The notes under the pieces are model-generated. The model did no database searches. It was not told where the DNA came from and saw only the letters and a list, made by a program, of their open reading frames with translations. This document shows, one piece after another, positions 8,214 through 63,388 of a stretch of 64,000 bases of DNA (within the stretch, counting starts at the first letter, position 1; each line of letters opens with the position of its first letter). Source of the DNA: an uncultured Clostridia bacterium. Its GTDB lineage: Bacteria; Bacillota; Clostridia; TANB77; CAG-508. The DNA lies in the NCBI GenBank assembly GCA_947627755.1, contig CANQXD010000003.1, forward strand, positions 4,173 to 68,172, read 5' to 3'. Both the position numbers and the translations under genes were made by a program.

Positions 8214-8271
8214 TTTCTTTTATCTCCCCTTTTTGTTCTTGTTGTTCTCTTTGTTTTTATAGCTTTTTCTT

Positions 8272-8979: not shown

Positions 8980-9073
8980 GCTAACTATAATTCCTTTCCG
9001 ACACAAATATAAGAAAATTTTAAACTTATCCTATTATCTCACGGAAAAGCGAATCTGTCAACAAAAAGTAGCG

Positions 9074-9754
9074 CTAGTTTGCACTACTTACTTCTTTTTC
9101 TTCTATTTCTATTATGCTTTCATATAGCCTCTTTTTCTTTTGATATTTTTTATTTTCTACAATTACTAAATACCAAAGATAAGCTAAAATAAGTAAAATT
9201 GCAATATTTTGCCAATATAAAATAGCAATACTGCAGAAAATAGTTAGAAAGCAAATAGTAAAATATGAAATTGTATGCATATAATCGTAGGCTTCTTTTC
9301 TTCCATATAAAATATGTAAAATTCCTTTTAAAATTCTTCCTCCATCCATTGGATAAATTGGAATTAAATTGAAAATGGCAAGCAAAATATTTGCATAAAT
9401 GATTAGTGTTCTATCTATGTGCCAAACTGAAATTGGAAGAATAGAAAACAAAATAATAAAAAATAGATTTGTAAGTGGTCCACTTGCAGCAATAATAATC
9501 TTTTTCAGTGTAAGCATAGTTCCATTTTTTATTTTTTTATTTACATTTTCTACTTTACTTTCAAAACCAATTGAAAGACCAAGTGGCATAATTTCTAGAC
9601 TATTGGGCTTGAATCCTAGAATAATTCCTGCTAGCAAATGTCCTAATTCGTGAAGAACTGCAAAAAGCATTAACATTCCATAAATTTCAATTTGCCTTGT
9701 AATAATAAAAATGGCTATAAAAATAAATATTTTCAAATGTAATCGTATTTTCAC
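9074..9754 (-). CDS. M50 site-2 protease (SpoIVFB-like, no CBS domain)
   Basis: HELGH zinc motif (LHELGHLLAG) and a second motif NLIPIYPMDGGRIL. Polytopic, and follows an M23 gene as in spoIVFA-spoIVFB. Confidence 0.8.
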   Translation of the reverse strand: MKIRLHLKIFIFIAIFIITRQIEIYGMLMLFAVLHELGHLLAGIILGFKPNSLEIMPLGLSIGFESKVENVNKKIKNGTMLTLKKIIIAASGPLTNLFFIILFSILPISVWHIDRTLIIYANILLAIFNLIPIYPMDGGRILKGILHILYGRKEAYDYMHTISYFTICFLTIFCSIAILYWQNIAILLILAYLWYLVIVENKKYQKKKRLYESIIEIEEKEVSSAN

Positions 9755-9809
9755 TTTTTAGATTCCTTTCTTTTGTCTAAACTCTCATAACTATCTATAT
9801 AATCTATTT

Positions 9810-10844
9810 CTATGCGAAAGATAAGATTAGCTCTGGATTTACTACTCGATTTGCTTTTCGTACTTCAAAATGTAGATGTGGTCCAGTTGCATTACCACTT
9901 TCTCCTACTTCACCTATTTGTTGTCCTTGCACAATTGTATCTCCTTCTTTTACGTAAATTGTTTGGCAATGAGCATATAGAGTAATTACATCATCTTTTT
10001 CTATATAAACATGATTTCCATAGCCACCTTCTGTAGAAACACAAGTTACTTTTCCTTCCATAGCAGCTGTAAAAACAGTTCCAGCATTAACTGCTATATC
10101 AATTCCCGCATGATTTGCAGATATAATATCTGTTGGCTCTCTTGGTCCAAAACGAGATGTAATTGTTCCTCTTAGTGGCAATATCATACTATAATTGTTT
10201 TTAATTTCATTTGCATCAATTTCCATTTGCGATAATTGTATCTCTTCTGATGCTTGACTATTTTCTTGCTGAATTGCTGATTCTACTATAGTTTCATTTG
10301 CTAAAAGTTCTTCTCCTTCTTCTCCTCCACCAATTCCTCCTTCTACTATTTCATTACTTGTTTCTATATTATTTTGTTGTTCATTATTTTCTTGTCCATT
10401 TTCTTCTACTTGTTCATTCACTTGGATATTGCTTTCTTCTTGTTCTGAGCTTTGCTCTGTATCTTCATTTTTTTGTAATAGAAATGCTTTTATATTATTG
10501 TTATAATATTCTTCTGCCTGCTTATATACATTTTGAAAATTGATGTCATAGGATAAAAATTCTTTTGTTTTACTAATGACATTTTCTGAAAAAATATAGT
10601 TTGAATTTTTTATTAAATAAAAAATAAAATAAATTAATAGGCAGATGGCAATTTGTAAAATAAGTTTTTTAAATAGACTATACTCTACCTTTTGTGTACT
10701 ATTGACATTACTGCTTGGAACACGTACGCCACCTTGCATTTTTCTTCTTTGATAAATTTCTTCCGCTCTTCTTATTCTTTCTTCTGCACTTATGGTTCTT
10801 TCCAAACCTTCCACCTCTTCCTTGGTTTTTCTTTGCTTATTCAT
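9810..10844 (-). CDS. M23 (LytM) metallopeptidase, membrane anchored (SpoIVFA position)
   Basis: One TM segment (LILQIAICLLIYFIFYLI), an acidic Glu/Gln/Asn-rich linker, and a C-terminal M23 domain with intact HxxxD (HAGID) and HxH (HLHFE). Confidence 0.85.
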   Translation of the reverse strand: MNKQRKTKEEVEGLERTISAEERIRRAEEIYQRRKMQGGVRVPSSNVNSTQKVEYSLFKKLILQIAICLLIYFIFYLIKNSNYIFSENVISKTKEFLSYDINFQNVYKQAEEYYNNNIKAFLLQKNEDTEQSSEQEESNIQVNEQVEENGQENNEQQNNIETSNEIVEGGIGGGEEGEELLANETIVESAIQQENSQASEEIQLSQMEIDANEIKNNYSMILPLRGTITSRFGPREPTDIISANHAGIDIAVNAGTVFTAAMEGKVTCVSTEGGYGNHVYIEKDDVITLYAHCQTIYVKEGDTIVQGQQIGEVGESGNATGPHLHFEVRKANRVVNPELILSFA

Positions 10845-15223: not shown

Positions 15224-17083
15224 TTAGAATCCTGTTCTTGGAAGTTTTGGCTCTTCTGGTTTTTTAGAAGGATTTGTAATAGTTATTTCTTGTGTACTTT
15301 CATGCTCTATAATTTCTACTTCAAATTCTTCATTTGTTATGTCATAATCATAATGTGTTTTTACTTCTCGAATTGTATAAATTCCTTTTTCTAATTCTTT
15401 ACTAATTGCAATTCCTTCTTCATTGGTAATTAATGTTTGTACCACCTTTTTATTTTCATCTAAAATTTGAAAGATTACACCTTCAATTGGACTTCCTTGT
15501 AATCTTCCATTTATTAGGTTGTCGTCTTCACTTATTTTTATAATTTTTATTTTTCCTTTTATTTTTTCGTTTTCTAGTTTTAATGTGATTACTTCTCCAT
15601 ATTTAATTTCCACAGTAATCTCTTTTTCTTTTAATACATAATTATCGTTTGTTTTTGTTTCCTTTAGAGTGTAAGTTCCTATTTCTAAATTGTTTGCATA
15701 AGCCTCGCCTTTTTCATTGGTAATTAGTGTTTGTACTAATTTTCCTTCGCTATCAAAAAGTTTAAATTCTACATTTTTTAATGCAATTTTATTATCTTCA
15801 GCATCTACTTTAATAATTTTTAAATTTCCTTTTTTTCGCTCATTTTCGAACATAACACTTGCTAGTTTTCCCCATTGCAAGGTAACTTGTTTTTTCTCTT
15901 TTGAAAGTAGATATGGTTCTGGAACCTTAGTTTCCTCAATGGTTACAGTTTGTGGATAAATTCCATCTAAATGTGCAATTCCATTTTGATTTGTAGTAAC
16001 TTCTCCTATTTTATTTTGTTTTTCATCTATTATTTCAAAAGTGACATTTGCTAGTGGTTTCTTTGTTTCTGCATCTATTTTTTGAATTTCTAAACTACAT
16101 GTATTTGCTTTTATTTTTAATTGAATAGATGTTCTTGCTGTTTCATAACTATTTAAATATGTAACATAACTTTGTGCCTCACTATCTCCACTTTTACAAT
16201 GAAAAATAGGGTTGGTTTTTATTTGTGCATTTTTTACAATTACCGTTCCATTAATATCTTGTTTTATTTGGTTTGTTGGAATTGCTATTTTAAATGTATT
16301 TTGTGAAAAATAGTTTTGTTCTACATTATTCATATCTAATATTTTTGTTCCATTTGGAAATTTTTGCATTTCTACTTCATAAGATTTTAATTCTTTATTA
16401 GCTTGTACTTTATAATTTTGCACATAATATTCTATATTATTAATTATTTCTGTCTTTCTTCCTTGGTATTCTTGTATTCCTACATTTGGTGGCTGATAAG
16501 TATCACTTCCATTTATTCCATAATCATACAATGTTTGTGCTACTTCTAACACTTTCTTTCCTCTTCTTTGTATTTCTTCTACTGTATTTCCATCTACACT
16601 TCTATTCCCTAAAATATATTTTTGGGTTGGAGCAATAGAATCTTTTAATGAGTGAAGTGCTACCTTTGTCGCAGAGTATAAATCATCATCACATTCTAAA
16701 TTCCATTCTGTGTAATTTGAACCCATATAACCTTTATCTAATATCCTCCAAATTCTTTGGTCTTCTTCTTTTTGAATGGTTACATTGTAAGCATCATATC
16801 CAGTTCCTACTCCTTTTTTTGCTGGTTCTACACAAAATGCCGGATAGTTTTTGTTTTCGGCCTCATCATGATAATAAACATAATATACTACTTTATAACT
16901 CCATCTTTTTTCATTTTCCATATAATATTCTAGTAAAGAATCACATTCGTGATCTGCTTGTAATAGCACAGTATCCCCTTCTTTAATTTTTGCTTCACTA
17001 GGAATGATACTTGCTGTTATTTGTAGTATTTGAAATGTTAGTAATAAAATTAAAATTAATTTTTTTATTATTTTCTTTTTCAT
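15224..17083 (-). CDS. surface adhesin: signal peptide, thioester-domain-like N-domain, three CnaB/SpaA-type repeats, terminal LPRTG
   Basis: Signal peptide MKKKIIKKLILILLLTF. PAFCVEPAKKG and YSATKVALHSL resemble the Cys and TQxA motifs of thioester domains. Three repeats of the type LKIIKVDAEDNKIALKNVEFKLFD...GTYTLKETK. Ends ...EEPKLPRTGF-stop. Confidence 0.8.
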   Translation of the reverse strand: MKKKIIKKLILILLLTFQILQITASIIPSEAKIKEGDTVLLQADHECDSLLEYYMENEKRWSYKVVYYVYYHDEAENKNYPAFCVEPAKKGVGTGYDAYNVTIQKEEDQRIWRILDKGYMGSNYTEWNLECDDDLYSATKVALHSLKDSIAPTQKYILGNRSVDGNTVEEIQRRGKKVLEVAQTLYDYGINGSDTYQPPNVGIQEYQGRKTEIINNIEYYVQNYKVQANKELKSYEVEMQKFPNGTKILDMNNVEQNYFSQNTFKIAIPTNQIKQDINGTVIVKNAQIKTNPIFHCKSGDSEAQSYVTYLNSYETARTSIQLKIKANTCSLEIQKIDAETKKPLANVTFEIIDEKQNKIGEVTTNQNGIAHLDGIYPQTVTIEETKVPEPYLLSKEKKQVTLQWGKLASVMFENERKKGNLKIIKVDAEDNKIALKNVEFKLFDSEGKLVQTLITNEKGEAYANNLEIGTYTLKETKTNDNYVLKEKEITVEIKYGEVITLKLENEKIKGKIKIIKISEDDNLINGRLQGSPIEGVIFQILDENKKVVQTLITNEEGIAISKELEKGIYTIREVKTHYDYDITNEEFEVEIIEHESTQEITITNPSKKPEEPKLPRTGF

Positions 17084-50728: not shown

Positions 50729-52693
50729 TTATAGTGACATAATGATTGGAAGTATCATTGGGTTTCTTTTTGTTTTTTGGAATATATAGTCTCTTATATG
50801 GTCTTTTAAAGTTGATTTTATTGTAGACCAATCACGGATTCCTCTATTTTCTAACATTTGTACTTCTTCACGAATAAATCTTTTTACCTCATCCATTAAG
50901 TTTTCCGATTCTTTTACATAAACAAATCCCCTAGAAATAACATCTGGACCTGCTACAATTTCTCCGGTTGCTTGATCCATTGTCATAACTATAACTATAA
51001 GTCCATCTTGTGATAAGTGTTGTCTATCACGTAGTACTACATTTCCTACGTCTCCTACTCCGTATCCATCTACTAATATTTTACCAGATGGTACACTTCC
51101 TGTTTGCTTTGCTTCTTGTTCGTTCATTTCTATTATTCGTCCATTGGTACTCATAAAAATATTTTGTGGCTCTACTCCCATCATTTTAGCTGTTTCAGCG
51201 TGTGCCATTAGTTGCCTATATTCTCCGTGAACCGGAATGAAATATTTTGGTTTTGTTAAAGCAAATATTAATTTTTGTTCTTCTTGGCAAGCGTGTCCTG
51301 ATACGTGAATATCTGCAAGTGCACTATATACCACTTCTGCTCCTATTTGAAGTAAATCGTCAATTACTTTTGATACAGATTTTTCATTTCCTGGAATTGG
51401 ATTTGCAGATATAATTATTAAGTCATTTGGTGTAATAACAATTTTCTTATGCTCTCCTGCTGCCATTCTTGTTAGCGCAGACATTGTTTCTCCTTGACTA
51501 CCTGTAGTAATTATAACTAATTGCTCGTCTGTATAATTTTGAATCATATCTATATCTATAAATATATTTTCTGGTACATCTATATATCCTAAAGATTTTG
51601 CTGTTTCTATCATATTAATCATACTTCTGCCACATACTGCAATTTTTCTGCCGTTTGCAACTGCAGCATTTACAATTTGTTGAACACGATGCACATTAGA
51701 AGCAAAGGTAGCTACTACAATTCTTTTTTTACAATTAACAAATAGTTTGTCAAGTTCTTGCCCTACTGTTCTTTCTGACATAGTATAGCCTTTTCTTTCG
51801 CTATTGGTACTGTCTGATAATAATGCAAGTACACCTTTACTACCAATTTCAGCGAGACGGTTAAAGTCTGTAATTTCACTGTTAATTGGTGTATAATCAA
51901 TTTTAAAGTCTCCTGTGTGAAGTACTGTTCCTACTGGTGTATAAATAGCAAGCATAACAGCATCTGGAATACTATGGCAACTGCGAATAAATTCTACTTT
52001 CATTTTTCCAAAGTGAATGGTTTGCCCTGCCTCTACTTCATACATTTTTGTACTTCTTAATAGTTTATGTTCTTCTAATTTATTCTTTATTAAACCTAAA
52101 GTTAGTCTTGTTCCATAAATTGGTACATTGATTTGTTTTAAAATATAAGGAATAGCTCCTATATGGTCTTCATGACCGTGGGTAATGACGAAGCCTTTTA
52201 TTTTGTCCTTATTTCTTTCTAAGTAGGTTACATCTGGAATTACTAAATCAACTCCTAACATATCATCTGTTGGAAATTCTAGTCCACAATCTACTACAAT
52301 AATTTCATCCTCATATTCAAAAATGGTCATATTGTTTCCAATTTCCTCTAAGCCACCTAAAGGAATAATTTTTAAATTGGATTTTTTTAATTCAAAATTT
52401 TGTTTTTTACTATAATTTTTTCTTTTTTCTATAGTATTTGTGTCTACTTGCTCTCTTTTTGTTTCTTTCCTTTTCTTTGGTACTTGTTGATCTTTTTCTC
52501 TCTTCGCTATTGTTTCTTGTTTGTTTGTTTCTCTCCTTAATCTAGCTACTTGCTCATTACTTTCTTTTTTGTCTAACTTTGATTCTTTCCTATCTTGCCT
52601 TTCCAAATTTTTTTCTATTTTTTCTTGTACTCTTGTATTAGGTTTATAAGTCCTTCTTGCCCTTTGTTGATTCTCTTTTCTTTCTTCTGTCAT
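50729..52693 (-). CDS. rnj: ribonuclease J with a ~100-aa basic/acidic N-terminal extension
   Basis: Metallo-beta-lactamase motif ITHGHEDHIGAIP, beta-CASP and C-terminal domains. The first ~100 residues are a Lys/Arg/Glu/Gln-rich low-complexity extension. Confidence 0.93.
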   Translation of the reverse strand: MTEERKENQQRARRTYKPNTRVQEKIEKNLERQDRKESKLDKKESNEQVARLRRETNKQETIAKREKDQQVPKKRKETKREQVDTNTIEKRKNYSKKQNFELKKSNLKIIPLGGLEEIGNNMTIFEYEDEIIVVDCGLEFPTDDMLGVDLVIPDVTYLERNKDKIKGFVITHGHEDHIGAIPYILKQINVPIYGTRLTLGLIKNKLEEHKLLRSTKMYEVEAGQTIHFGKMKVEFIRSCHSIPDAVMLAIYTPVGTVLHTGDFKIDYTPINSEITDFNRLAEIGSKGVLALLSDSTNSERKGYTMSERTVGQELDKLFVNCKKRIVVATFASNVHRVQQIVNAAVANGRKIAVCGRSMINMIETAKSLGYIDVPENIFIDIDMIQNYTDEQLVIITTGSQGETMSALTRMAAGEHKKIVITPNDLIIISANPIPGNEKSVSKVIDDLLQIGAEVVYSALADIHVSGHACQEEQKLIFALTKPKYFIPVHGEYRQLMAHAETAKMMGVEPQNIFMSTNGRIIEMNEQEAKQTGSVPSGKILVDGYGVGDVGNVVLRDRQHLSQDGLIVIVMTMDQATGEIVAGPDVISRGFVYVKESENLMDEVKRFIREEVQMLENRGIRDWSTIKSTLKDHIRDYIFQKTKRNPMILPIIMSL

Positions 52694-53102: not shown

Positions 53103-54452
53103 CTACACTCCTGCTGCTGAGAATAAGAAGTTACCCATATATACTTCTAGTAATGGAACTAATACAACTAATACGAAGAAGATAATAAACACACCTACAA
53201 TAGAGTACATTAATTGTGGCATTACTTTCATTATTTTTTCTAGTGCATTGTTAATGTCCATTTCCATATATTCTACTAATTTTTGCATCATTTCAGATAA
53301 GTCTGTTTGCATACCTATCTTTAACATTTCCGTTATCATTGGAGAAGTTAGACCTGACCTTTCAAATGGTTCTATCCATGATTGTCCAATTAAAATATTG
53401 TTGATTGCTGTTTCTGTCATAGATAGAAATACATAATTGTGTACTACGTTTTTACTTACTTCTATAGCATCTTGAATTCTCATTCCATTGTCTAAGTTTA
53501 ATAACATTGCTTTAATAAATCTAGAAAAGTCTAAACTATAAATTAACTTTCCAAAGATTGGCATTGTATATTTAAAATAATGAAAATTATATTTTCCCTT
53601 TGGTGTATTGATATAGAATATAATACCAACTACAATACCTAAAATGATAAAGGTCGGAATATACCAGTGTTCAAGCAATGCTATAATGAAGGATTGGAAA
53701 GCTAATGTAATAGGATTGATTTCATCTTTACTTCCTACTGCATCATACACTCTTTGAATTGCAGGTACTGCAACTAATGTTCCTACTACTAGCATAATAA
53801 TTAATCCTATTAATTGTAATACACTTGGAATAACAATTTTCTTTACTTTGCTAGTGATATCATTTGAATTATCTAAATATCGAACAGCTTGTTGTAAAGA
53901 TTTTGTAAGAGATCCTGACAATTCTCCTACTTTTATCATATTAATATAAATATATGGAAAAACATTAGAATAGTATTCCATTGTTGTATACATATAGTCT
54001 CCACCCTGTACTCCAGCTAGAATATCCTCTAAAATTCCACGTAAAGACAAGTTTTCTGTACTTTCTATAATGGTACTTAAAGCATGAATATTATTAAAAT
54101 TTGCCTTTTTTAATAAGTAAAAGTTTTGTGTAAAAACAACTAAATCACGATTTGTAATTTGCTCTGTTGCTGCTAATTTTAAATTGACCTTTTCTACCCA
54201 TGAGATTTCTTTTTTGGCTGTTCCGTTTAAAATAGCACTAGAGTTTGCTGTTTGCATAATTTCATCCATATTGCTAACATTTTTCTTTTTCTTCTTCACG
54301 CCTTTGCCCATATATCCAACTTGTACTACTTGAATAGGCATTAAGCCATTATTTTTAAGTCTTTTAATTAAGGACTGCTTGCTAGTATCTTCTACTTTGT
54401 TTTTTACTACTAATCCTTTATCTGTTACAGCTTTATACACATATTCTGCCAT
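53103..54452 (-). CDS. pilC: type IV pilus platform protein (GspF/PilC family)
   Basis: 449-aa polytopic protein with two T2SS-F-like repeats (FPYIYINMIKVGELSGSLTKSLQQAVRYLD; SPMITEMLKIGMQTDLSEMMQKLVEY). Last gene of the pil cluster. Confidence 0.85.
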   Translation of the reverse strand: MAEYVYKAVTDKGLVVKNKVEDTSKQSLIKRLKNNGLMPIQVVQVGYMGKGVKKKKKNVSNMDEIMQTANSSAILNGTAKKEISWVEKVNLKLAATEQITNRDLVVFTQNFYLLKKANFNNIHALSTIIESTENLSLRGILEDILAGVQGGDYMYTTMEYYSNVFPYIYINMIKVGELSGSLTKSLQQAVRYLDNSNDITSKVKKIVIPSVLQLIGLIIMLVVGTLVAVPAIQRVYDAVGSKDEINPITLAFQSFIIALLEHWYIPTFIILGIVVGIIFYINTPKGKYNFHYFKYTMPIFGKLIYSLDFSRFIKAMLLNLDNGMRIQDAIEVSKNVVHNYVFLSMTETAINNILIGQSWIEPFERSGLTSPMITEMLKIGMQTDLSEMMQKLVEYMEMDINNALEKIMKVMPQLMYSIVGVFIIFFVLVVLVPLLEVYMGNFLFSAAGV

Positions 54453-54489
54453 TTTTTATTCTTTCCTCCTTCCTAATTTATATTTTCTA

Positions 54490-55602
54490 TTAATTTGATA
54501 TTTGTGATTGTTTCTTTATTTTTAATTGCATAATCGTTCTATTTAAAATTTCTATATTTTTTTCTTCTATTTGCGCTTTAGCTTGATCTAATGTAATTTT
54601 GTCATCTACAAATAACTCTGCAATAGAATTTATTAAACCGATACTTCCTTTTTCTAAATTACTTTGAATTGCATCTTCTATTTCAGATACACTAATTTTA
54701 TCTTTTCTAATAATTCCTGAAACGATATTATCTACTACCATAACTTCTGGTACTAATACTAATTTTCCATTTTTTCCTTTTAATAGTCTTTGTGAAACAA
54801 CAAGTTTTAGTAAAGAAGAAATAACATATTTAACACTTGGTTGGTCACTAATGTCGTAAAAGTTAATCATTCTATCGATAGTTTCTGCACAAGATTTAGT
54901 ATGCAACGTTCCTATTACTAAGTGACCTGATTCTGCTGTTTCAATTGCAGCATCCATAGTTTCTCTATCACGAATCTCTCCTACTACTACAATATCGCAG
55001 TCTTCTCTTAAAGAGTTTTTTACACCATCACTATAGCATAAACAATCTCTTCCTGCTCCTACTTCCTTTTGAATAATAATGGATTTTTTTGAAGTGTGTT
55101 TATATTCTACTGGACTTTCTAATGTTAATATTTTTTTGTTTTGATTCTCATTAATATCATTAATTAACGCATTTAATGTAGTTGTTTTTCCTGAGTTTGT
55201 TTTTCCTGTTACTAAAATTAAGCCTTGTGGTTGATAAGTCATTCTTCTTACTATATCTGGTACTCCTAAATCTTCATATTTAGGAAGTTCATTTTTAATT
55301 AAACGCAAGGTGAAAGTAGGAATTTCATCTGCATAAGATACATTTACCCTTAAGCGGATATCTTCAAATTCAAAAGAAGTATCCAATTTTTTGGTCTTTT
55401 TAAAGGTTTCATCTTTTTCTAAGTTTCCTCTTACAAAATAATCGTAAATTTCGGTTAAATCTTCTTCTGTTAATTCCTCATATTCTTCTATTGGTATTAA
55501 ATCTCTTGCAATTCTTAACATTGGCTTTAATCCGAAAATTAAGTGAACATCTGAGGCATCTTTTTCTTTTGCTATTTTTAAAACCTTATCTATATTTATC
55601 AT
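54490..55602 (-). CDS. pilT: type IV pilus retraction ATPase (PilT family)
   Basis: ASDVHL N-terminal motif, Walker A GKTNSGKTTT, Asp box/Walker B (CDIVVVGEIRD) and His box (GHLVIGTLHT). 370 aa. Confidence 0.9.
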   Translation of the reverse strand: MINIDKVLKIAKEKDASDVHLIFGLKPMLRIARDLIPIEEYEELTEEDLTEIYDYFVRGNLEKDETFKKTKKLDTSFEFEDIRLRVNVSYADEIPTFTLRLIKNELPKYEDLGVPDIVRRMTYQPQGLILVTGKTNSGKTTTLNALINDINENQNKKILTLESPVEYKHTSKKSIIIQKEVGAGRDCLCYSDGVKNSLREDCDIVVVGEIRDRETMDAAIETAESGHLVIGTLHTKSCAETIDRMINFYDISDQPSVKYVISSLLKLVVSQRLLKGKNGKLVLVPEVMVVDNIVSGIIRKDKISVSEIEDAIQSNLEKGSIGLINSIAELFVDDKITLDQAKAQIEEKNIEILNRTIMQLKIKKQSQISN

Positions 55603-55627
55603 CTGTAAATTTCCCCTTCCATTTTAT

Positions 55628-57256
55628 TTAAAAAATAACTAATTTTTTGTTTAGCTCTTGTAAAGTTGTTATTCCTGCTAATACTTTGTTTAATCCATCA
55701 ACAACAAGTGGTCTATAATTTCCTTCTAATGCCTTATTTCTAATTTCTATACTAGAAGCATTATCTACTATTAATTGCTTAATAGTATCATCAATTACTA
55801 ATATCTCATAGATAGCAATTCTATCATAGTAGCCAGTATGGTGGCATCTTTCACAACCTATTGTTTCATAAGTTGTTTTATCTGTAAAATCTAATGTAGT
55901 ATGATATTGTTCTGCAATATGATTCATTATATCTTTTTCTTCTTCATTGAATTCTCTTTTTTTACTACAATATGGACATACTTTTCTTACTAGACGTTGC
56001 GAAATTGAAGTTGCAAGTGTACTTGCTATGTCGTAGTTTGAAATTCCCATTTTTCTTAATCTTGTAATAACTTCTACACTGTTAATTGTATGTATAGTGG
56101 ATAATACGTAATGTCCAGTTTGTCCAGATTGCATTGCAATTTCTGCCGTTTCTTTATCACGAATTTCTCCTACTAGAATAATATCTGGATCTTGTCTTAA
56201 AACTGTTCTTAAAGAATCAGAGAAAGAAGTCTTTGTATCAATTTCTACTTGATTTAAGCCTGGAATACGAATTTCAACTGGGTCTTCAATTGTGGTAATA
56301 TTAATACTTGGCTTGTTTAACATATCTACAACGCTATATAATGTTGTTGTTTTTCCTTCTCCTGTAGGTGCCGCAATAATAGTAATACTATTTTTCTTAT
56401 CAAAGCTATCTTTTAGTAATTTTTCATCTTTTGGGAAACCTAAATCAAAAATTTTCTTGATTCCAGCATTCTTTTTTAATAATCTTAATACAAATTTTTC
56501 TCCATATACATTTTTTTGTGAAGATACACGAATGTTATAGTCTGGATACTCTAAAATTCTACCATCTTGTGATTCTTGTTTTTCTTGGTGCATATTTGAA
56601 ATAGCTTTTAACCTTCCTATAATTTGTGGTTGTTTTTCTTGTTCTATTTCTACTGCTGTAATAAGTTCTCCGTCTATACGATAGCGAATTCTTAATTTAT
56701 CTTCCATTGGTTCAAAGTGAATATCACTGGCTCTTTTTTCCATAGCCGTTTTAATTATACTATCTACTAATCCTGTAATATCTCGATTTGTATCAATGTT
56801 TTCTGAAACCACTCCTTCTAAAGAGTTTAATATTTCATCTATATTACTTTCAAATGTAATATATTTATCCATAACAAGCCCTTTATTTAATAATAAAAGT
56901 CTTATAGTATCTACTGTTCTTGGCTTAGTAGTATCAGCAAAACATACCTTTACTTTTCCAGCCTCTATATCAAATGGAATTGCTTTATTCTTTTTTGCAA
57001 TATCTAAAGATATATAATCTGAGACCTCAATACGAATATCATTTTCAGTTAATAATATTGTTTTTTCTCCTAAAATATCTCCTAATGCTGATATTAAGGC
57101 ATTATCATTACATAAATGCAAAATATGTAAAATATCTCCTAATTTTTTTTCAGGATGTTCTCTTTGGTATTCTAAGGCTGATTGAATATCCTCTTCACTA
57201 ATAATTCTTCTTTTTGCAAGTTCTATTCCAATTGGTTGTGTTTGTTTTAGTGCCAT
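55628..57256 (-). CDS. pilB: type IV pilus assembly ATPase (PilB/GspE family)
   Basis: Walker A APTGEGKTTT, PDIILVGEIRD, GHYVLSTIHT and a tetracysteine motif (CPYC...CERC). Confidence 0.92.
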   Translation of the reverse strand: MALKQTQPIGIELAKRRIISEEDIQSALEYQREHPEKKLGDILHILHLCNDNALISALGDILGEKTILLTENDIRIEVSDYISLDIAKKNKAIPFDIEAGKVKVCFADTTKPRTVDTIRLLLLNKGLVMDKYITFESNIDEILNSLEGVVSENIDTNRDITGLVDSIIKTAMEKRASDIHFEPMEDKLRIRYRIDGELITAVEIEQEKQPQIIGRLKAISNMHQEKQESQDGRILEYPDYNIRVSSQKNVYGEKFVLRLLKKNAGIKKIFDLGFPKDEKLLKDSFDKKNSITIIAAPTGEGKTTTLYSVVDMLNKPSINITTIEDPVEIRIPGLNQVEIDTKTSFSDSLRTVLRQDPDIILVGEIRDKETAEIAMQSGQTGHYVLSTIHTINSVEVITRLRKMGISNYDIASTLATSISQRLVRKVCPYCSKKREFNEEEKDIMNHIAEQYHTTLDFTDKTTYETIGCERCHHTGYYDRIAIYEILVIDDTIKQLIVDNASSIEIRNKALEGNYRPLVVDGLNKVLAGITTLQELNKKLVIF

Positions 57257-57342
57257 ATCATCTTCTCCCTTCTTTTGTACTCTATCTCTATTATACTATA
57301 CTTTTTATTATTTCTATAGCATTTTTAACAAATTACATAAAA

Positions 57343-57786
57343 TTACCAATATCGTAGTACATATTCATTTTTAACTTCAAAAAGTTTTGAGCTTTTAATT
57401 GCCATCTGTACTTGTATTAAATTTTTGGTAATATTATTTTGTTTTTGCTCTGTTTTTGTAAATTTACAATAAGCAATGTTATTGCATATCTTTACCTTGT
57501 TACGATAAATACTATTATCTGGAGCTTCATAATAAGTATATATTGTACCATCTTCAAAAATAATCTGATGATTTGTTACTTCATAAGTATTGTTGTTGTT
57601 TTTTACATCTTCAATAAAATACATATTGAATTTATTAAATTCTGATATATATTTTCCACTCTCAGTAATATATTTTGTATTACTAAAAAACATATCACTT
57701 ATCACTGCTAGCATTGAAATAGCAAATGTTAGCAATATCATATATATAATTAAAGAGGTTAATGTGATTCCTTTTTCTTGTTTCAC
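57343..57786 (-). CDS. minor pilin-like protein (non-canonical prepilin)
   Basis: MKQEKG|ITLTSLIIYMILLTFAISMLAVI: short basic leader ending in Gly, then a ~22-aa hydrophobic helix. Ser at +5. Confidence 0.7.
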   Translation of the reverse strand: MKQEKGITLTSLIIYMILLTFAISMLAVISDMFFSNTKYITESGKYISEFNKFNMYFIEDVKNNNNTYEVTNHQIIFEDGTIYTYYEAPDNSIYRNKVKICNNIAYCKFTKTEQKQNNITKNLIQVQMAIKSSKLFEVKNEYVLRYW

Positions 57787-57801
57787 TAAAAGTCTCCTTT
57801 T

Positions 57802-58212
57802 CTACGCTTCTTTTATTTTTAATTTTCGTATCGTATAGTTCTTAGTTTGTCCTAAAAATTCGTAATCAATGGTTATAGTAAGAATTTTTATAATATCTTG
57901 CTTACTACTATCGTTTTGATTATATTTTTCTACTTTTATATTTGCATTCATACTTTCTGGTAATTCATACATAGCACTAATATTTTCATTTAAAGTTTCT
58001 GTTACTTCTTCATATTGCATTTTGTCTGTACTTTCTGCTATTTTTACAGCATAATGAACTGCCATTGCGTTCATTCTAATTTCTGCTGTATAGGATGCAA
58101 TTTGATAATATAAGGTACCTATTGTTCCTACAAACAAGCTTAAAATCAACATAGCAATAACAACATCTGCAATTGATATTCCTTTATTTTCTTTCCACTT
58201 TATTAATTTCAT
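57802..58212 (-). CDS. minor pilin-like protein (non-canonical prepilin, Asp at +5)
   Basis: Start set at the ATG at 58212 (MKLIKWKENKG|ISIADVVIAMLILSLFVGTIG) after AGGTGG. Abuts the pilD stop. Confidence 0.7.
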   Translation of the reverse strand: MKLIKWKENKGISIADVVIAMLILSLFVGTIGTLYYQIASYTAEIRMNAMAVHYAVKIAESTDKMQYEEVTETLNENISAMYELPESMNANIKVEKYNQNDSSKQDIIKILTITIDYEFLGQTKNYTIRKLKIKEA

Positions 58213-58213
58213 T

Positions 58214-59029
58214 TTACCACCTACAAGCAAACCAATTGATTCCAATTATTGTGATAATATTAAAAATTGTTAGATAAAAACCAATGGGTAAATTTTCAAA
58301 ATAAGACATTGCTTTATAATTTTTTCCTCTACTATTTTGCATTATTTTTCTTATTATATTCTCTATACAAAATGTCACTAAACTTAAGAATACTGTTATT
58401 ATATAACCTATTGGATATGAAAAAACTATCATAATAATACTTAATTGCAAAATTTCAATTACATAAGAGCCTTGTATTTTTTTCTTTAAATACTTATTAT
58501 CAATTATTATTAATATAATAAGCAATAATAAGGATATAACATATCTATATATATTAGCTTTTTCTACTATATATAGATAAATCATATACCCTGCTAAAAT
58601 AATAGTTTCATATAAAATTACGCATTTTTGAATAGTTTTTCTTTCTTTATCAATTCCCGCTATTATAATTAAGCCAGCAAAATATAATAGCCCTACTAAC
58701 AAATATACTAATTTACTAACTTCTAATTTTTCAAATGATAAATTAAGTGACATAGCAAATAAAAGAAATATTGTACCTGATAATATTTCTAAAAGTAAAT
58801 AACGAATTCTAATTTTTTCTTTGCAATAATGACATTTTCCCTTTAACGCTAAATAGCTTAAAATAGGAATCATATCCCAAAATCCAAGTTTATGATTGCA
58901 ATTTGGACAATAAGAACGTTTATGGGTAATGTCTTGATGTAAAGGAAGTCTATATACTGCCAAAGTAAAAAAGCTTCCAAATAGAGTTCCAATGCAAAAA
59001 ATTAAAAAATAAAAAATAAATTGTTCCAT
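58214..59029 (-). CDS. pilD: prepilin peptidase (A24 family, divergent)
   Basis: N-terminal Zn-binding region CPNCNHKL...CHYCKEKI, a first Asp region (IIAGIDKERKTI) and polytopic topology. The usual GxGD(V/F)KL box is not obvious (closest is IIDNKYL). Confidence 0.8.
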   Translation of the reverse strand: MEQFIFYFLIFCIGTLFGSFFTLAVYRLPLHQDITHKRSYCPNCNHKLGFWDMIPILSYLALKGKCHYCKEKIRIRYLLLEILSGTIFLLFAMSLNLSFEKLEVSKLVYLLVGLLYFAGLIIIAGIDKERKTIQKCVILYETIILAGYMIYLYIVEKANIYRYVISLLLLIILIIIDNKYLKKKIQGSYVIEILQLSIIMIVFSYPIGYIITVFLSLVTFCIENIIRKIMQNSRGKNYKAMSYFENLPIGFYLTIFNIITIIGINWFACRW

Positions 59030-59046
59030 TTTCTTTCCATTTTACT

Positions 59047-59090
59047 AAAAAATATGAGGTTACCTAAATACAAAATTGGTAACCTCATAT
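59047..59090 (-). terminator. strong hairpin/terminator immediately after the major pilin gene
   Basis: Perfect 13-bp stem atatgaggttacc / ggtaacctcatat (59052-59064 / 59078-59090). On the minus strand it is followed by TTTTT. Confidence 0.8.
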
Positions 59091-59145
59091 TTAGTTTTTT
59101 AGCTAATAAATTAAATAATTTTGCTAATTAGATAATTATGCTTTA

Positions 59146-59364
59146 TTATTCCCAGCCTTTGTCGTCTATATATTTTTCAACGTTAGTAAAATCACTTTGC
59201 TCTTGATTAGCTGCTGCTGCATAATTTTCACGACCTTGTTTTGCCTTATTGAATAATCCATTTTGTCCTAATACCATAGAAATAGATATTCCAGCTAAGA
59301 TAATAAGTACAACAATAGTAATTACTAATGCAACAAGTGTAATACCTTTTTGTCCTTTTAACAT
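59146..59364 (-). CDS. major pilin candidate, 72 aa (65 aa mature), non-canonical prepilin
   Basis: MLKGQKG|ITLVALVITIVVLIILAGISISMVLGQNGLFNKAKQ... Strong RBS AAGGAGG and its own downstream hairpin. No room for a globular head domain. Confidence 0.8.
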   Translation of the reverse strand: MLKGQKGITLVALVITIVVLIILAGISISMVLGQNGLFNKAKQGRENYAAAANQEQSDFTNVEKYIDDKGWE

Positions 59365-59431
59365 AAAAAATTCCTCCTTATATTTATTTTTTTGTATATA
59401 TTTATTTTTATAAATATAACCTAAATATTAA

Positions 59432-59866
59432 TTATTTTAGTCCTGTTTTTGGACTACTTACTGTATTTCCCGTACTTCCCGTGCTTCCTGTATTTTGATT
59501 GTTTCCTGCTTGTCCATTTGATGAATTATTATCTGGCGTGTCAGTTCCTACTATCGTAGTACCTGCATCACTTTCTACTGTAGTTGCAAATGGATTTTCT
59601 TTGCTAGGGTCGTAAGTTCTATCTTTTTGATAAATATTTAAATCTGCTCCTTCTATTACATATACTCTATTTTGTAATTCTATTTCGTTATCAATTGTTT
59701 CTTCTTTTAATGCATTTTGAACACTTTCTGGTGTAGTATATGCAATTTTATTTGGAACTACTTTACTAATTGGGTTATCATCATAAAATAATACACTTAA
59801 TAATAAGATGATAACAACACATAGTAATAAAATGATAATCATTTCTTTTAATATGGTTTTAATCAT
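59432..59866 (-). CDS. bitopic pilus-cluster protein of unknown role
   Basis: N-terminal TM (MIIILLLCVVIILLLSVLFY), then a small domain and an Asn/Gly/Ser/Thr-rich tail. Lies between the pilO-like and pilin genes. Confidence 0.55.
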   Translation of the reverse strand: MIKTILKEMIIILLLCVVIILLLSVLFYDDNPISKVVPNKIAYTTPESVQNALKEETIDNEIELQNRVYVIEGADLNIYQKDRTYDPSKENPFATTVESDAGTTIVGTDTPDNNSSNGQAGNNQNTGSTGSTGNTVSSPKTGLK

Positions 59867-59883
59867 TTTTTTACTCCTTTACT

Positions 59884-60573
59884 TTAGTCTTCATTTGTAT
59901 TAGTATTTTCCTGCGTATCACTAGATTCTTGTGAATCATTAGTTTCTTGCGTATCTGTTGTGCTTGTTGCATTTACTGATTGTGTTGAAGTGTTACCTTG
60001 TACTGTTACATTTTTAACTGTAAATGTTCCTTGTAATATTTCACCTTGATAAGGTAATAGTTTGAAGTTTTGTATTCTAAAGTTTAAATCTGTATCATTT
60101 TCAATAGCATAAATGAAGTTTGTAATTGCTATATATGAACCATTTACTGTAAATCTTATATCATTTACACCATTAGTACCTGTACTACTTGAAACGATTT
60201 CAAATGTTAGTAAAACTCCTTGCTTTCTAGCATGTGTTCCTAATGTTGTCCATAAAAATTCAATAGTATAACTTTTTTGTTCCATTGCTGCTAAAATTTC
60301 TGCATCTGTACTTACATTCGTATATTGTAAATATTCTTCTTCTGCTTCTTTTAAATTTTTTTCTGCATTTGTTAGCTCTGATCTTTTTTTAGGATAGTCA
60401 ACATCAATCATAGCATTGGCTTCTTCAATTTTGGTATTTAATTCTTGTGCTTTTTGTTCTATTTGCTCTATACTTAAAATTTGTATACTACCAAATTGCA
60501 TTCCATTTCTTAAGGCTACATAGCCTAGAGCAAGAAATAAAACAATGATAATACTTAATAATATCTTTCTCAT
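59884..60573 (-). CDS. PilO-like pilus alignment protein
   Basis: N-terminal TM, a coiled coil (QKAQELNTKIEEANAMI...NLKEAEEEY) and a C-terminal beta-rich domain. ATGA overlap with the pilMN stop. Assignment rests on architecture and position. Confidence 0.5.
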   Translation of the reverse strand: MRKILLSIIIVLFLALGYVALRNGMQFGSIQILSIEQIEQKAQELNTKIEEANAMIDVDYPKKRSELTNAEKNLKEAEEEYLQYTNVSTDAEILAAMEQKSYTIEFLWTTLGTHARKQGVLLTFEIVSSSTGTNGVNDIRFTVNGSYIAITNFIYAIENDTDLNFRIQNFKLLPYQGEILQGTFTVKNVTVQGNTSTQSVNATSTTDTQETNDSQESSDTQENTNTNED

Positions 60574-62219
60574 GGCAAGTCTCCTTCTATTACAACTTTT
60601 ACAATACCATTTTGTTTTACACCAGAAGTAGAAACTATTGTACTAGGGCTTAAAATTCCATCAACAATTAACTTGCTCTTGAAAAATCCTAGTAAATCAT
60701 ATTCCTTAGCTTGTGCTTGGATAACAATATGGGAATTTGAAGTATTTTCTATTGACGTTAAAGTAACTCCTTTTGGAATAACATTCATAATTCTTGTTAA
60801 TAACAATGGAATCACATTTTTTGTTCTTAGCTTTTCTTGTGCTTCATCACTATAATTTTTAAGATTTTCTGTCATTGTTTCATAATTAGTAGCTTTACTA
60901 TTTAATGCTTGCACATCTTTATCTGCTAAACTTATTTGTTCTCTTGTATCTTCTTTTAAACGTTCAACTTCTGCTATTTTACTATCTGTTTGAACTTTTA
61001 AGAAAGTTACCATAGCAAAATAGATAATTAAGAATGCTACTATTCCTGAAGTTAATCTTAACATCCATTTTTCTGTATTGTCCCATTTTGCTTTTAAGTC
61101 GAACGATAAATTTAAAGAAGAAAAGATGTTTTTCTTTTTGCCTTTTGAATTATTAGCGTTATTTTTACTGTTTCCTTCTAATTTTAACCAACTTGGCATT
61201 TGATCCACTAATGTTGGTTTTTTAAAGTTTATGGTCTTAATTCCATAACCTAAACCTTGCATAGCAAGAGCTATAGCAGAGTTTACTTCAATATAATCTT
61301 TCATATTGATTTTTATATTGTCTGGTACAAAGTATGGTTTTAAGATTTCGCATTTAATATTTGGAAAATACTCTTGAAAGTATAAATCTACATTGCTAAT
61401 TATACTTCCAGTTCCTGTAATATAAATTTTATTTATATGGTCTATTTCTAAGTTTTCTACTAATGTTTTTGTTTTTTGCACAATTTGATATAATGTAGGC
61501 ATTATATCTTCTAAATATAAATTTTCATCTTCTTGTCCAAGTTCTTTTCCTTCCATAGTGTAAATAGTAGTATTTTTACAGATTTCATAAGCTTTTGCAT
61601 AAGAATTTTCTTTTGAATTAATATTGTCTAAAATGACGTCCATTCCTTCTTCTAATTTATCTACTTGATACACTCTTTCTTCTACCATAGTAGTAATACT
61701 TGTTTTTTCTTCAATATTAACAATAATAGAATTTTCCTTTGATTTAATATCTACTAAATTAGGAATTACCATAGCAAGTGGTGACATACAAGAGATAGAA
61801 TTTCCTTCAAATTCTTGCATTTTTCTATTAATTTCTACTTTATTTACAGATATATAAATTGCTTTTATTTTTTCGTTATTTTTCATATCTGGTACTAAAG
61901 CATAACGTGTTTCTAACGCATTTCTGTTGTAACCTTTATCAAAGCAATATGAATCAAACTCTGTTTCTATTGCTTTTTTTAAGTCATTTTTATTAAGTAG
62001 ATTAAAAAAGTAGAAATATTGATAAGTTTCCTCTGATAAATTAATACTAATTGGTATTTTGTAGCTAAAAGTTTCAGAAATGATTTGATTAATTGCTTCA
62101 CCAATTTTATCATAAAATTTTACACCAAAAGATTCTACTTTTAGTAAGTCACGTTCTTTAGTTACTTTTGCATATTTAATTAAATTGTTTTCAATATATA
62201 AACCTAAACAACTTGGCAT
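60570..62219 (-). CDS. pilMN: fused PilM-PilN pilus alignment protein
   Basis: N-terminal actin-like PilM-type domain (about 330 aa), then TM (LTSGIVAFLIIYFAMVTFL), a coiled coil and a PilN-like C-domain. A fused pilMN is known in clostridial T4P loci. Confidence 0.7.
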   Translation of the reverse strand: MPSCLGLYIENNLIKYAKVTKERDLLKVESFGVKFYDKIGEAINQIISETFSYKIPISINLSEETYQYFYFFNLLNKNDLKKAIETEFDSYCFDKGYNRNALETRYALVPDMKNNEKIKAIYISVNKVEINRKMQEFEGNSISCMSPLAMVIPNLVDIKSKENSIIVNIEEKTSITTMVEERVYQVDKLEEGMDVILDNINSKENSYAKAYEICKNTTIYTMEGKELGQEDENLYLEDIMPTLYQIVQKTKTLVENLEIDHINKIYITGTGSIISNVDLYFQEYFPNIKCEILKPYFVPDNIKINMKDYIEVNSAIALAMQGLGYGIKTINFKKPTLVDQMPSWLKLEGNSKNNANNSKGKKKNIFSSLNLSFDLKAKWDNTEKWMLRLTSGIVAFLIIYFAMVTFLKVQTDSKIAEVERLKEDTREQISLADKDVQALNSKATNYETMTENLKNYSDEAQEKLRTKNVIPLLLTRIMNVIPKGVTLTSIENTSNSHIVIQAQAKEYDLLGFFKSKLIVDGILSPSTIVSTSGVKQNGIVKVVIEGDLP

Positions 62220-62506
62220 GATAACTCCTTCTTTTGTTTTTGAAAATTTATATTATTATAGTTTGCAAAAAAATACAAAAAATACTTTTCTTTTTTTATT
62301 TTATTTTTCATATTTTTCCGTTTTTTGTCATATTATGATAAATCTGTCTCTATTTTATCTTTTTTTTATTGAAAGTCAATAGTTTTAATATACTTGTAAT
62401 TTAAATGTAATATTATTGTAATATTTTATAATTTTTTTTATTTTTATATAATTTTTCAAATAATTATTCAAAATTTTGCACTTATTTTTTAATTGCTAAA
62501 AAATTA

Positions 62507-62567: not shown

Positions 62568-63388
62568 TTATCTTATAAAACATATTGCTATAATAATAAT
62601 TCCCAATATTACACGATAAATGGCAAATATTTTAAAACTTCCTTTTTTTAGATAATTTAGCAAAAATTTGATGACAAAAAGTCCTACTAAAAAGCTAGTA
62701 ACAACACCTATTAGGAATGGCAAATCGAAAACAAAATGTTTCATTTCGTATAAAGCGGCAGCTGCTACAATTGGTGTAGATAATAGGAAAGAATATTTTG
62801 CAACTGATTCTCTGTCAATTTGTAACTTTCTTCCTACAGTCATTGTAATTCCTGATCTTGAAACTCCCGGAAATGCAGCTGCAAGTGCTTGTGAAATTGA
62901 AATTAGAATTGATTGTTTTAAGGTAATATCTTTGTAAGATATTTTTGATTTTGCTTTTTTATATATAATACAATTCCCATTACAATTAAAGCAATTGCTA
63001 TTAGTATCATTTCTACTGATATTATTTCTACGTGAAATGCACTGGATAATCCTTCTATTATTTTTTCTGATATTTTATCTAATACTAAGCTTAAAATGCC
63101 TGCTGGAATTGTTGCAATAACAATATACCAGAAAATTTTTCCTTCTGTTGATTTTTCTTTTTTTACTACTTGCTTGTATCCGCCTTTTATTAAATTAACC
63201 CAATCTTTAAAGAAGAATACTAAAATTGAAAATAAAGTTCCAATATGTAATGCTACATCAAATGATGGTGTCATTTCTCCCCACTGAAATAGCCATGGAA
63301 ATAAGTTTAAATGAGCTGAACTAGAAATTGGTAGTAATTCTGTTAATCCTTGTACAATTCCTAATATAATCGCTTGTGTTATATTCAT
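62568..63388 (-). pseudogene. uppP: undecaprenyl-diphosphatase UppP/BacA, split by a -1 frameshift in a homopolymer
   Basis: ORF 62918-63388 (GIVQGLTELLPISSSAHL...) and ORF 62568-62843 (...KYSFLLSTP...) are the two halves. The intervening frame reads SYKDITLKQSILISISQALAAAFPGVSRSGIT. One extra T in the T6 run at 62955-62960 would fuse them. The span is 821 nt (3n+2). Confidence 0.85.

Follow-up and report, generated by a model that had tools for sequence, protein, structure and literature searches.

Here we report on a cluster of ten genes in a 64,000-nucleotide stretch of DNA from an uncultured Clostridia bacterium (contig CANQXD010000003.1 of assembly GCA_947627755.1, forward-strand positions 4,173 to 68,172; this whole stretch is called the window, and all coordinates are positions within it). 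The evidence is computational throughout, comprising sequence, profile and structure-model analysis of a host order that is uncultured, and it supports reading the locus as a type IV pilus operon whose putative prepilins are non-canonical and belong to a large unstudied class. We consider it probable that a working type IVa (T4a)-type pilus of a monoderm bacterium is made from this operon, which would be vertically conserved across the order TANB77. As judged from its sequence, the cluster resembles a monoderm T4a pilus yet fails two sequence tests that define that family, namely a major pilin with Glu5 and a prepilin peptidase with a two-Asp A24 domain.

The cluster consists of ten co-directional open reading frames (ORFs) lying head to tail on the minus strand from 62219 to 53103, which in 5' to 3' order encode proteins of 549, 229, 144, 72, 271, 136, 147, 542, 370 and 449 amino acids (aa). 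A first-pass annotation of this DNA had proposed ten co-directional pilus genes here, with translational coupling at 60570-60573 and at 58212/58214, and our check of the sequence bears it out: all ten ORFs are present, an ATGA overlap (60573-60570) joins the 549-aa and 229-aa genes, and a TAA-a-ATG junction at 58216-58210 lies between the 271-aa and 136-aa genes. Relatives of the 271-aa protein, which we term PilD-like, were found in 480 of 185,579 GTDB species representatives, and the loci of the best 80 of these 480 species, retrieved via that protein, form the comparison set used below. The full ten-gene order is kept in 71 of the 80 loci and the remaining nine are interrupted by contig ends; in every uncut locus the ten genes are intact and syntenic, which speaks against the decay in relatives that the annotation had raised as a reason for doubt.

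The cluster encodes a complete, conserved motor set of the T4a type, in which PilB serves extension and PilT retraction, PilC is the platform protein and a membrane sub-complex of GspL/GspM style is also present. The PilB-type assembly ATPase (542 aa; 55628-57256, on the minus strand like all other features of the cluster) carries an ATPase domain (PF00437, E=9e-100) and an MshEN N-domain (PF05157, E=2.5e-7) together with a CxxC...CxxC zinc motif, and its Walker A, Walker B, Asp and His boxes are intact. Its best NCBIfam match is the type IV-A PilB model TIGR02538 at 395 bits, below the equivalog cutoff of 675, as compared with 374 bits for GspE, 214 for ComGA (cutoff 300), 68 for FlaI and 38 for the Tad ATPase model TIGR03819. 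Residues 9-58 of PilB also match, weakly, the MshE-type cyclic di-GMP (c-di-GMP) motif (NF053729, 29.8 bits vs a cutoff of 38); the presence of such a motif beside an MshEN domain suggests possible control of pilus assembly by c-di-GMP. The PilT-type retraction ATPase (370 aa; 54490-55602) passes TIGR01420 at 322.3 bits vs a cutoff of 319.1, contains PF00437 at E=2e-42 and is encoded in 77 of the 80 related loci. The Walker A strings of the two ATPases, which had been flagged as unusual, are indeed present and conserved (GKTNSGKTTT in 75 of 77 PilT relatives, APTGEGKTTT in 68 of 78 PilB relatives), but they give no sign of unusual function, because both fit the P-loop consensus [AG]x4GK[ST] and the other ATPase boxes are intact. 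The PilC/GspF platform protein (449 aa; 53103-54452) has two T2SSF repeats (PF00482, E=2.3e-26) and matches both the GspF and PilC models of NCBIfam, with only 58 bits against a cutoff of 240 for ComGB.

At the other end of the operon, a PilM/PilN-like fusion of 549 aa (60570-62219), whose gene stands first in 71 of the 80 loci, is assigned by position, topology and weak PilN matches. As in GspL, a single transmembrane helix separates a cytoplasmic domain of ∼380 aa from an external one of ∼130 aa. The C-terminal part matches PilN (PF05137) weakly, in 11 of 23 orthologues and at best with E=0.001, and there are sporadic T2SSM matches. By eye, its opening GLYIENNLIKYAKV recalls how PilM begins, but with other residues in place of the phosphate-binding Asp and Gly. 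The PilM identity is drawn from position and from this GLYIENNLIKYAKV start, because the N-terminal ∼380 residues have no Pfam or PDB sequence match. The following gene encodes a PilO/GspM-like bitopic protein of 229 aa (59884-60573), so named for its N-terminal transmembrane helix, coiled coil and position. A second bitopic protein, of 144 aa (59432-59866), has a Gly/Ser/Thr/Asn-rich tail and no family matches in Pfam or NCBIfam; its gene is found at the same position in 76 of the 80 loci.

The major prepilin (72 aa; 59146-59364) begins MLKGQKG/ITLVALVITIVVLIILAG, where the slash marks the predicted cleavage site, and would yield a mature protein of ∼65 aa that starts with ITLVA, has Ala at +5 and lacks a globular domain, its length leaving no room for a beta-sheet. 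Glu5 is regarded as the single invariant functional residue of type IV pilins in bacteria and has been called “absolutely conserved in bacterial T4P” (Sonani et al., PMC10710030). Among 79 related species the residue at -1 of the major pilin is always Gly, +1 is Ile in 72 and Val in seven, and Thr+2, Leu+3 and Thr+9 are each invariant (79/79); +5 is Ala in 76 and Thr in three, never acidic, and there is neither a Gly+14 nor a Pro+22. Cleavage at another place, restoring Phe1 and Glu5 and thereby a conventional pilin, was considered and is ruled out: acidic residues of the major prepilin occur from residue 46 onwards, and with none before that point no other cleavage site can place Glu at +5. 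The short form is not the only one in this slot. While a pilin of 69-87 aa is found in ∼55 related loci, as here, in 23 of 78 relatives the slot is occupied by pilins of 128-191 aa with the same N-terminus, in 1-10 tandem copies, and the shorter pilin is a version of this longer gene without the globular domain. Two loci hold especially long tandem sets upstream of pilD, with nine paralogues in L046 (∼7000-10000) and ten in L079 (3541-9804); these are 130-190 aa in length, have identical Ala5 N-termini and variable C-terminal parts, and resemble a pilin variation array.

The two minor prepilins have a short basic leader like that of the major pilin and differ from it, and from each other, at +5. 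The 136-aa protein (57802-58212) starts MKLIKWKENKG/ISIADVVIAML, with Asp at +5, while its relatives mostly read KG/FTMQD; in these, -1 is Gly in 75 and Ala in six, +1 is Phe in 45, Val in 17, Ile in ten and Ala in six, and +2 is Thr in 68, Ser in eight and Met in five. As first proposed, it is the sole pilin of the cluster with an acidic +5 (Asp in 80 relatives, Glu in one). A predicted long helix followed by beta strands makes it similar to a small minor pilin of the GspI/PilV type, and there are weak N-terminal profile matches to PilV, the Geobacter pilin and Thermus PilA5. The 147-aa protein (57343-57786, with a GTG start) has a KG/ITLTS junction without an acidic +5; it starts MKQEKG/ITLTSLIIYMIL and has Ser at +5. 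In its relatives -1 is Gly and +2 is Thr without exception (81/81 each), +1 is Ile in 54 and Val in 27, and +5 is Ser in 41, Ala in 25, Thr in seven and Glu in two, with others besides. An AlphaFold2 (AF2) model built from 44 homologues (predicted local distance difference test score, pLDDT, 86) has a 55-residue N-terminal helix (residues 9-63) followed by an 8-strand sheet, and as modelled this is the “lollipop” shape of a pilin, at the level of architecture only. Neither minor pilin is matched by PF07963 or TIGR02532, and PDB profile searches with both alignments returned only chance-level or N-terminal-helix matches.

The N-termini quoted in the first-pass annotation (MLKGQKG/ITLVALVITIVVL, MKLIKWKENKG/ISIADVV and MKQEKG/ITLTSLI, all with leaders ending in Lys-Gly and Ile at +1) are therefore as described, as are Ala at +5 of the major pilin and Ser at +5 of one minor pilin, and within the 64-kb window these three ORFs are the sole bearers of such N-termini. 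Behind the positively charged leader, each of the three continues with some 20 or more hydrophobic residues. The annotation had further called the Glu5 pattern inverted. This is real, but the tip can also be read conventionally, as an acid-less cap plus one Asp+5 subunit, in which case only the major pilin is aberrant. Gly-1, Thr+2 and Leu+3 behind a short Lys/Arg leader, in three otherwise unrelated proteins, is on its face the recognition pattern of a prepilin peptidase, and its retention argues that these are pilins rather than generic membrane anchors. As the pattern is constant over ∼80 species, it is a fixed property of the lineage and not an oddity of a single genome. The alignments show a distinct class of pilin, with a short basic leader, Gly-1, Ile or Val at +1, Thr+2, Leu+3 and Ala5, and without the helix breakers Gly14 or Pro22.

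The expression signals set the major pilin gene apart. It has a strong consensus ribosome-binding site (AAGGAGG) and is directly followed by an intrinsic terminator or attenuator hairpin (59044-59103) with a 14-bp GC-containing stem and a U-run, which folds at -23.2 kcal/mol (z=-6.3), a value equalled by none of 200 shuffled sequences; its loop of 13 nt is the reason that a simple terminator scan misses it. A strong hairpin follows the pilin gene in 18 of 75 relatives by a crude scan in which many gaps were shortened by ORF calls. The strong ribosome-binding site and the private terminator together indicate a gene designed for high expression and hence an abundant subunit. A candidate sigma-70-type promoter lies upstream of the first gene (62352-62379; TTGACT-16-TAAAAT, 10/12 matches), a weak pointer given that such sites are no commoner in the region than in shuffled sequence. 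The pilin gene of Clostridioides difficile has a c-di-GMP element upstream; an Rfam scan of the present locus returned no riboswitch and no c-di-GMP element.

Several results weigh against a functional T4a-type pilus operon at this locus. The pilMN fusion and pilO-like gene proposed earlier have position, topology and weak PilN matches in their favour, but Pfam and PDB profile searches gave no sequence support for either PilM or PilO. The major pilin scores 16.2 bits against the N_methyl model PF07963, below the cutoff of 21.2, and a Foldseek search of the PDB with the 147-aa pilin model found no significant match. In the PilD-like protein there is no match to Peptidase_A24 (PF01478, IPR000045) at E<=0.1, and a GxGD motif and a conserved second acid are both absent from 195 sequences of its family. 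Our survey covered the gene neighbourhoods, and a second canonical peptidase or Glu5 pilins are possible elsewhere in the genomes. Finally, how the filament packs, in what order its subunits sit at the tip and whether it takes up modular pilins are matters that we infer.

The most consequential of these points concerns the PilD-like polytopic membrane protein (271 aa; 58214-59029). Its N-terminal zinc/methylase domain matches PF06750 (IPR010627) at E=7e-31, and alignment to E. coli PppA by hhalign extends over residues 13-92 only (probability 98.8%, 40% identity over 80 residues); the same comparison with E. coli GspO was uninformative because GspO has no zinc domain. None of the 120 best relatives is annotated with PF01478, and PF06750 alone is recorded. 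Residue conservation was counted over 195 distinct family sequences, in which the N-domain has many invariant residues, the four Cys of the zinc domain among them. The C-terminal domain of ∼180 aa is non-canonical, yet well conserved. It contains a near-invariant GIDKE motif (D127 is Asp in 192 and Glu in three; E129 is kept in 194 of 195), which appears to lie at the cytoplasmic end of the third helix, the site of the first catalytic Asp of PilD; this placement was made by topology and spacing, and a MAFFT alignment with GspO and PppA misplaced the motif. A near-invariant P-(I/F)-G-(F/Y)-Y-L motif towards the C-terminus resembles the PFGPxL of prepilin peptidases. No second acidic column in this half exceeds 90%: position 177 is Asp in 97, Glu in 54, Asn in 25, Ser in 16, Gln in two and His in one (77% acidic); position 192, at the canonical 65-residue spacing from D127, is Glu in 92, Gln in 42, Asp in 41, Gly in 11 and Asn in five, with others besides (68% acidic); and position 206 is Glu in 145 (74% acidic) but Pro in this window. 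The AF2 model (pLDDT 74) found only generic helical membrane proteins and no fold match when searched against the PDB with Foldseek, and a PDB profile search with the alignment gave chance-level or N-terminal-helix matches only. The two Asp of prepilin peptidases have been called universally conserved (PMC10191384). The gene that the annotation called pilD does not, then, encode a canonical prepilin peptidase, and the description of the cluster as complete stands for its motor set and syntenic operon, while its processing step is putative.

As far as its sequence allows a judgement, the PilD-like protein would either cut prepilins via a remodelled active site or serve as a methylase or scaffold while another enzyme does the cutting. 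In the second case it would be a peptidase-dead pseudo-enzyme, acting as an N-methyltransferase, a scaffold or both, and cleavage of the prepilins would fall to another A24 enzyme encoded elsewhere, for example one of the TadV type that serves the published Tad cluster of TANB77. We take this to be a substantial possibility, if not the expected one. It accords with the want of PF01478 in the protein and its 120 relatives, with a similarity to PppA that stops at residue 92, with the lack of GxGD, with second-acid candidates that are only 68-77% acidic, nine of 195 sequences having no acid at either 177 or 192, and with an N-domain that, unlike the membrane half, is nearly invariant down to all four Cys. 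The gene list reported for this Tad cluster of TANB77 holds no peptidase, making a shared enzyme elsewhere conceivable (PMC11680825). On the other hand, the conservation of the C-terminal 180 aa, with GIDKE and P-x-G-F/Y-Y-L at their canonical places, points to an active site that has been retained and remodelled; the gene lies between pilin genes in every locus; and no ORF of the canonical GxGD type was found in ∼1.7 Mb of neighbourhood DNA, a sample far short of whole genomes. In Pseudomonas, Glu5 was reportedly found by Pasloske and Paranchych in 1988 and by Strom and Lory in 1991 to be required for N-methylation and not for cleavage. If that rule holds by analogy in TANB77, only the Asp5 minor pilin might be methylated by the well-preserved methylase domain, which we offer as a lead.

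Beyond the operon, the pilin N-terminus marks a far larger family. A search of 1.84 billion representative proteins with a profile of the 72-aa pilin, along the lines that the annotation had suggested, returned 30,207 clusters at E<=1e-3, of which 16,070 also passed E<=1e-10. Among the best 150 matches +1 is Ile in 141 and Val in four, and +5 is Ala in 144 and Ser in two; two thirds of them exceed 100 aa, the longest reaching 706 aa. The long matches align over the whole 68-residue module, and not over its hydrophobic stretch alone, before running into unrelated domains, for which Pfam gave an ALK/LTK-type glycine-rich domain (ALK_LTK_GRD) in one protein (P0242) and nothing significant in most. 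Several large module-bearing genes are found just past pilC in related loci, and one stands alone among housekeeping and sporulation genes. Module-bearing proteins of 200-700 aa were seen at 18932-20671 in L012, ∼6-8 kb downstream of pilD in L053, L058 and L063, and among P0241-P0390; P0241 carries the pilin module twice. As a rough inference, if each 100 kb of flanking sequence held about one further member, the 480 or more species together could explain a large part of the 30,207. The earlier expectation of a widespread N-terminal class in many Firmicutes is upheld as to the size of the class, but not as to its breadth, the named genomes all being metagenome-assembled genomes of uncultured gut Clostridia or CAG-245, CAG-273 or CAG-508 genomes (TANB77). 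A tblastn search of plasmid and phage collections with the pilin found no match, possibly owing to the low-complexity filter. None of the top matches bears a name, and homologues of the pilin are annotated as “hypothetical protein” by their sources, with “PulG” in one IMG case; some class members, such as P0241 at 21.7 bits, just pass PF07963. The PilFind motif demands [DE] at +5 (PMC3244431). Together with sub-threshold scores in the standard models and the “hypothetical” labels, this explains how the class has been overlooked.

A family of this size, with the module fused to diverse domains, invites the alternative that the machine is no surface pilus and rather resembles a type II secretion system (T2SS) or display device, in which a short pseudopilus of 65-residue subunits would export or anchor the module-bearing proteins, by analogy with the archaeal bindosome or with the pilus-associated secretion proposed for Clostridium perfringens, on which a preprint exists. 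The large module-bearing genes just past pilC would suit such a device, as would a major subunit without a globular domain and a PilB whose GspE score (374 bits) nearly equals its PilB score (395 bits). We nevertheless find it unlikely, since PilT, which is typical of true T4a pili, is encoded in 77 of 80 loci, the tandem variable pilin paralogues suggest an exposed fibre under diversifying pressure, and a pilin gene with its own terminator suggests that the subunit is made in very large amounts. That the three “pilins” are unprocessed N-terminally anchored membrane proteins, or the operon a decaying relic, could draw on the unmet Pfam and NCBIfam pilin thresholds, the 147-aa model without a structural match and the lack of a canonical peptidase domain in the PilD-like protein, but seems very improbable when Gly-1, Thr+2, Leu+3 and the Lys/Arg leader are kept in three proteins across ∼80 species and in the wider class, the ten genes are intact and syntenic in all uncut loci, the ATPase catalytic boxes are intact and the 147-aa protein is modelled with pilin architecture.

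For a T4a-type pilus we propose the following course of assembly. The prepilins would enter the membrane and be cleaved after Gly-1, a step most simply assigned to the PilD-like protein, which appears to have co-diverged with its substrates and keeps an intact methylase/zinc domain. The 147-aa pilin, lacking an acidic +5, would cap the tip, and the 136-aa pilin would dock beneath it, its Asp5 pairing with the N-terminal amine of the cap. PilB and PilC would then add Ala5 major subunits, whose continuous alpha-1 helices may pack hydrophobically as in Tad and archaeal pili, with Thr2, and possibly the invariant Thr9, hydrogen-bonding the neighbouring N-terminus in place of the Glu5 salt bridge. 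In the Tad pilus of Caulobacter, Glu5 takes part in no salt bridge, the N-terminus of the neighbour is bonded by Thr2, and alpha-1 runs on unbroken where Pro22 is missing (PMC10710030), which provides a structural precedent for a pilin with Ala5 and Thr2 and without Pro22. A subunit of 65 residues would give a thin filament without globular domains, into which larger module-bearing proteins may enter as modular pilins showing adhesive or enzymatic domains, and PilT would retract the fibre. The pilus could serve to adhere, to move on mucus or fibre, to take up DNA or to display proteins. A bolder reading, which we advance tentatively and regard as doubtful, is that TANB77 and its relatives hold a separate lineage of type IV filaments that has given up two hallmarks of such filaments in bacteria, the salt bridge from Glu5 to the N-terminus and the two-Asp GxGD peptidase, with packing of the archaeal or Tad kind and a new mode of processing; the PilD-like protein might, for example, cut with a single-Asp active site that is remodelled or dimeric. 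The ∼68-residue Ala5 module would then be a general tag by which gut Clostridia export and polymerise their surface proteins, tens of thousands of them in all.

The best 80 species with the cluster are uncultured Clostridia known as metagenome-assembled genomes (from rabbit, human, mouse, deer and digester) or as Clostridium sp. CAG:245, CAG:273 and CAG:508. We take CAG-273 and CAG-508 to be members of the GTDB order TANB77 (family CAG-508). CAG-245 belongs to the same order (PMC11680825), and the hosts of the cluster are assigned to TANB77, an order of uncultured gut Clostridia. Literature searches, including full-text searches for the pilin N-terminal strings, found no earlier description of the cluster. 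Identity with the published TANB77 pilus was considered and rejected: the pilus of Kim et al. 2024, the only study found on pili of this order, is of the Tad type, with CpaB, TadZ, CpaE, TadA, a fused TadBC and seven pilin-like genes, and that study makes no mention of PilB, PilT or PilC genes (PMC11680825). The order is of medical interest: how abundant TANB77 is tracks the response to immunotherapy of cancer, and one of the pilin-like proteins of that different TANB77 cluster is reported to stimulate dendritic cells (PMC11680825), which makes a second, very abundant surface fibre relevant to host interaction. While the host is uncultured and our findings are computational, the cluster should interest pilus specialists and those who work on the gut microbiome. 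A retractile T4a-type machine that would combine an Ala5 pilin with a GxGD-less PilD throughout an order is a natural test of the roles of Glu5, N-methylation and the peptidase dyad, and on a practical level pilin finders and annotation pipelines overlook a family of ∼30,000 clusters, most of them nameless or “hypothetical”.

The window itself is low-GC (26-33%) chromosomal DNA, and housekeeping genes for GltX, RNase J, MetRS, GatA/B, UvrC and GlmS surround the cluster. Among its other features, a 619-aa protein (15224-17083, minus strand) combines a thioester domain with three SpaA prealbumin-like domains and so belongs with the surface adhesins or pilins of the sortase type; the window would then encode two kinds of surface fibre that are unrelated to each other. 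Adjacent minus-strand ORFs of 91 and 156 aa (62568-62843 and 62918-63388) resemble by eye the C- and N-terminal parts of the undecaprenyl-diphosphatase UppP; the gene may be split or frameshifted, or the assembly may be in error here. A 654-aa protein (50729-52693, minus strand) appears by eye to be RNase J-like from its HGHEDH motif of the beta-lactamase type, with an unusual Lys/Glu/Arg-rich N-terminal extension of ∼100 residues.

The cluster can be compared with several known systems. Archaeal type IV pilins and class III signals share with the TANB77 pilins a short basic leader, Gly-1, a small or aliphatic +1 and no conserved Glu5, and both the archaeal signal and the TANB77 module are used on many otherwise unrelated surface proteins. 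In contrast, the TANB77 motor is bacterial (68 bits for FlaI) and its host is a Clostridia bacterium, and the PilD-like protein has the PilD N-domain that archaeal PibD and FlaK lack. PilA-N of Geobacter (∼61 aa) is likewise a pilin of ∼60-65 residues, consisting mostly of alpha-1 and encoded in a T4a-type cluster, and there are weak N-terminal profile matches to “Geopilin domain 1”; however, the Geobacter pilin has Phe1, Glu5 and the partner PilA-C, whereas the TANB77 cluster has no evident partner of this kind. With Tad/Flp (type IVc) pili the cluster shares a very short major subunit without a globular domain or Pro22 and probably with a continuous alpha-1. It differs in lacking CpaF/TadA, TadB/C, TadZ and CpaB, its PilB scoring 38 bits as a Tad ATPase vs 395 as PilB; in having two T2SSF repeats in one protein where the Tad platform is split into TadB and TadC; and in pilins without the Glu5-Tyr6 that Flp pilins keep. 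Unlike TadV, which has no methylase domain, the PilD-like protein retains one and is without the peptidase signature.

With the bifunctional prepilin peptidases PilD and ComC (MEROPS A24A) the PilD-like protein has several features in common: an N-terminal transmembrane helix with a four-Cys zinc domain, a C-terminal half that is polytopic, the Asp that closes the third helix and, close to the C-terminus, P-x-G-x-x-L. It differs from them in having no PF01478 match, no GxGD and no universal second Asp/Glu. The Com pilus also differs, its ComG set being without PilT and PilMNO, whereas PilT and a PilM/N-like protein are present here and the ComGA and ComGB matches fall below their cutoffs. Among the closest known systems are the T4a pili of monoderms such as C. 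perfringens, C. difficile and Streptococcus sanguinis. These have major pilins with Phe or Met at +1 and Glu+5, as opposed to Ile or Val at +1 and Ala+5 in the TANB77 cluster, which is further set apart by a putative PilM/N fusion, only two minor pilins, a PilD without a recognisable A24 domain and, in most species, a 65-residue major pilin without a globular domain. S. sanguinis has modular pilins with extra C-terminal domains. Monoderm T4a systems, like the TANB77 cluster, are operons with PilB, PilT and PilC, proteins of the PilM/N/O type (putative in TANB77), PilD and several pilins and without a secretin; their ATPases belong to the same bacterial PilB and PilT families, and a terminator likewise follows the major pilin gene.

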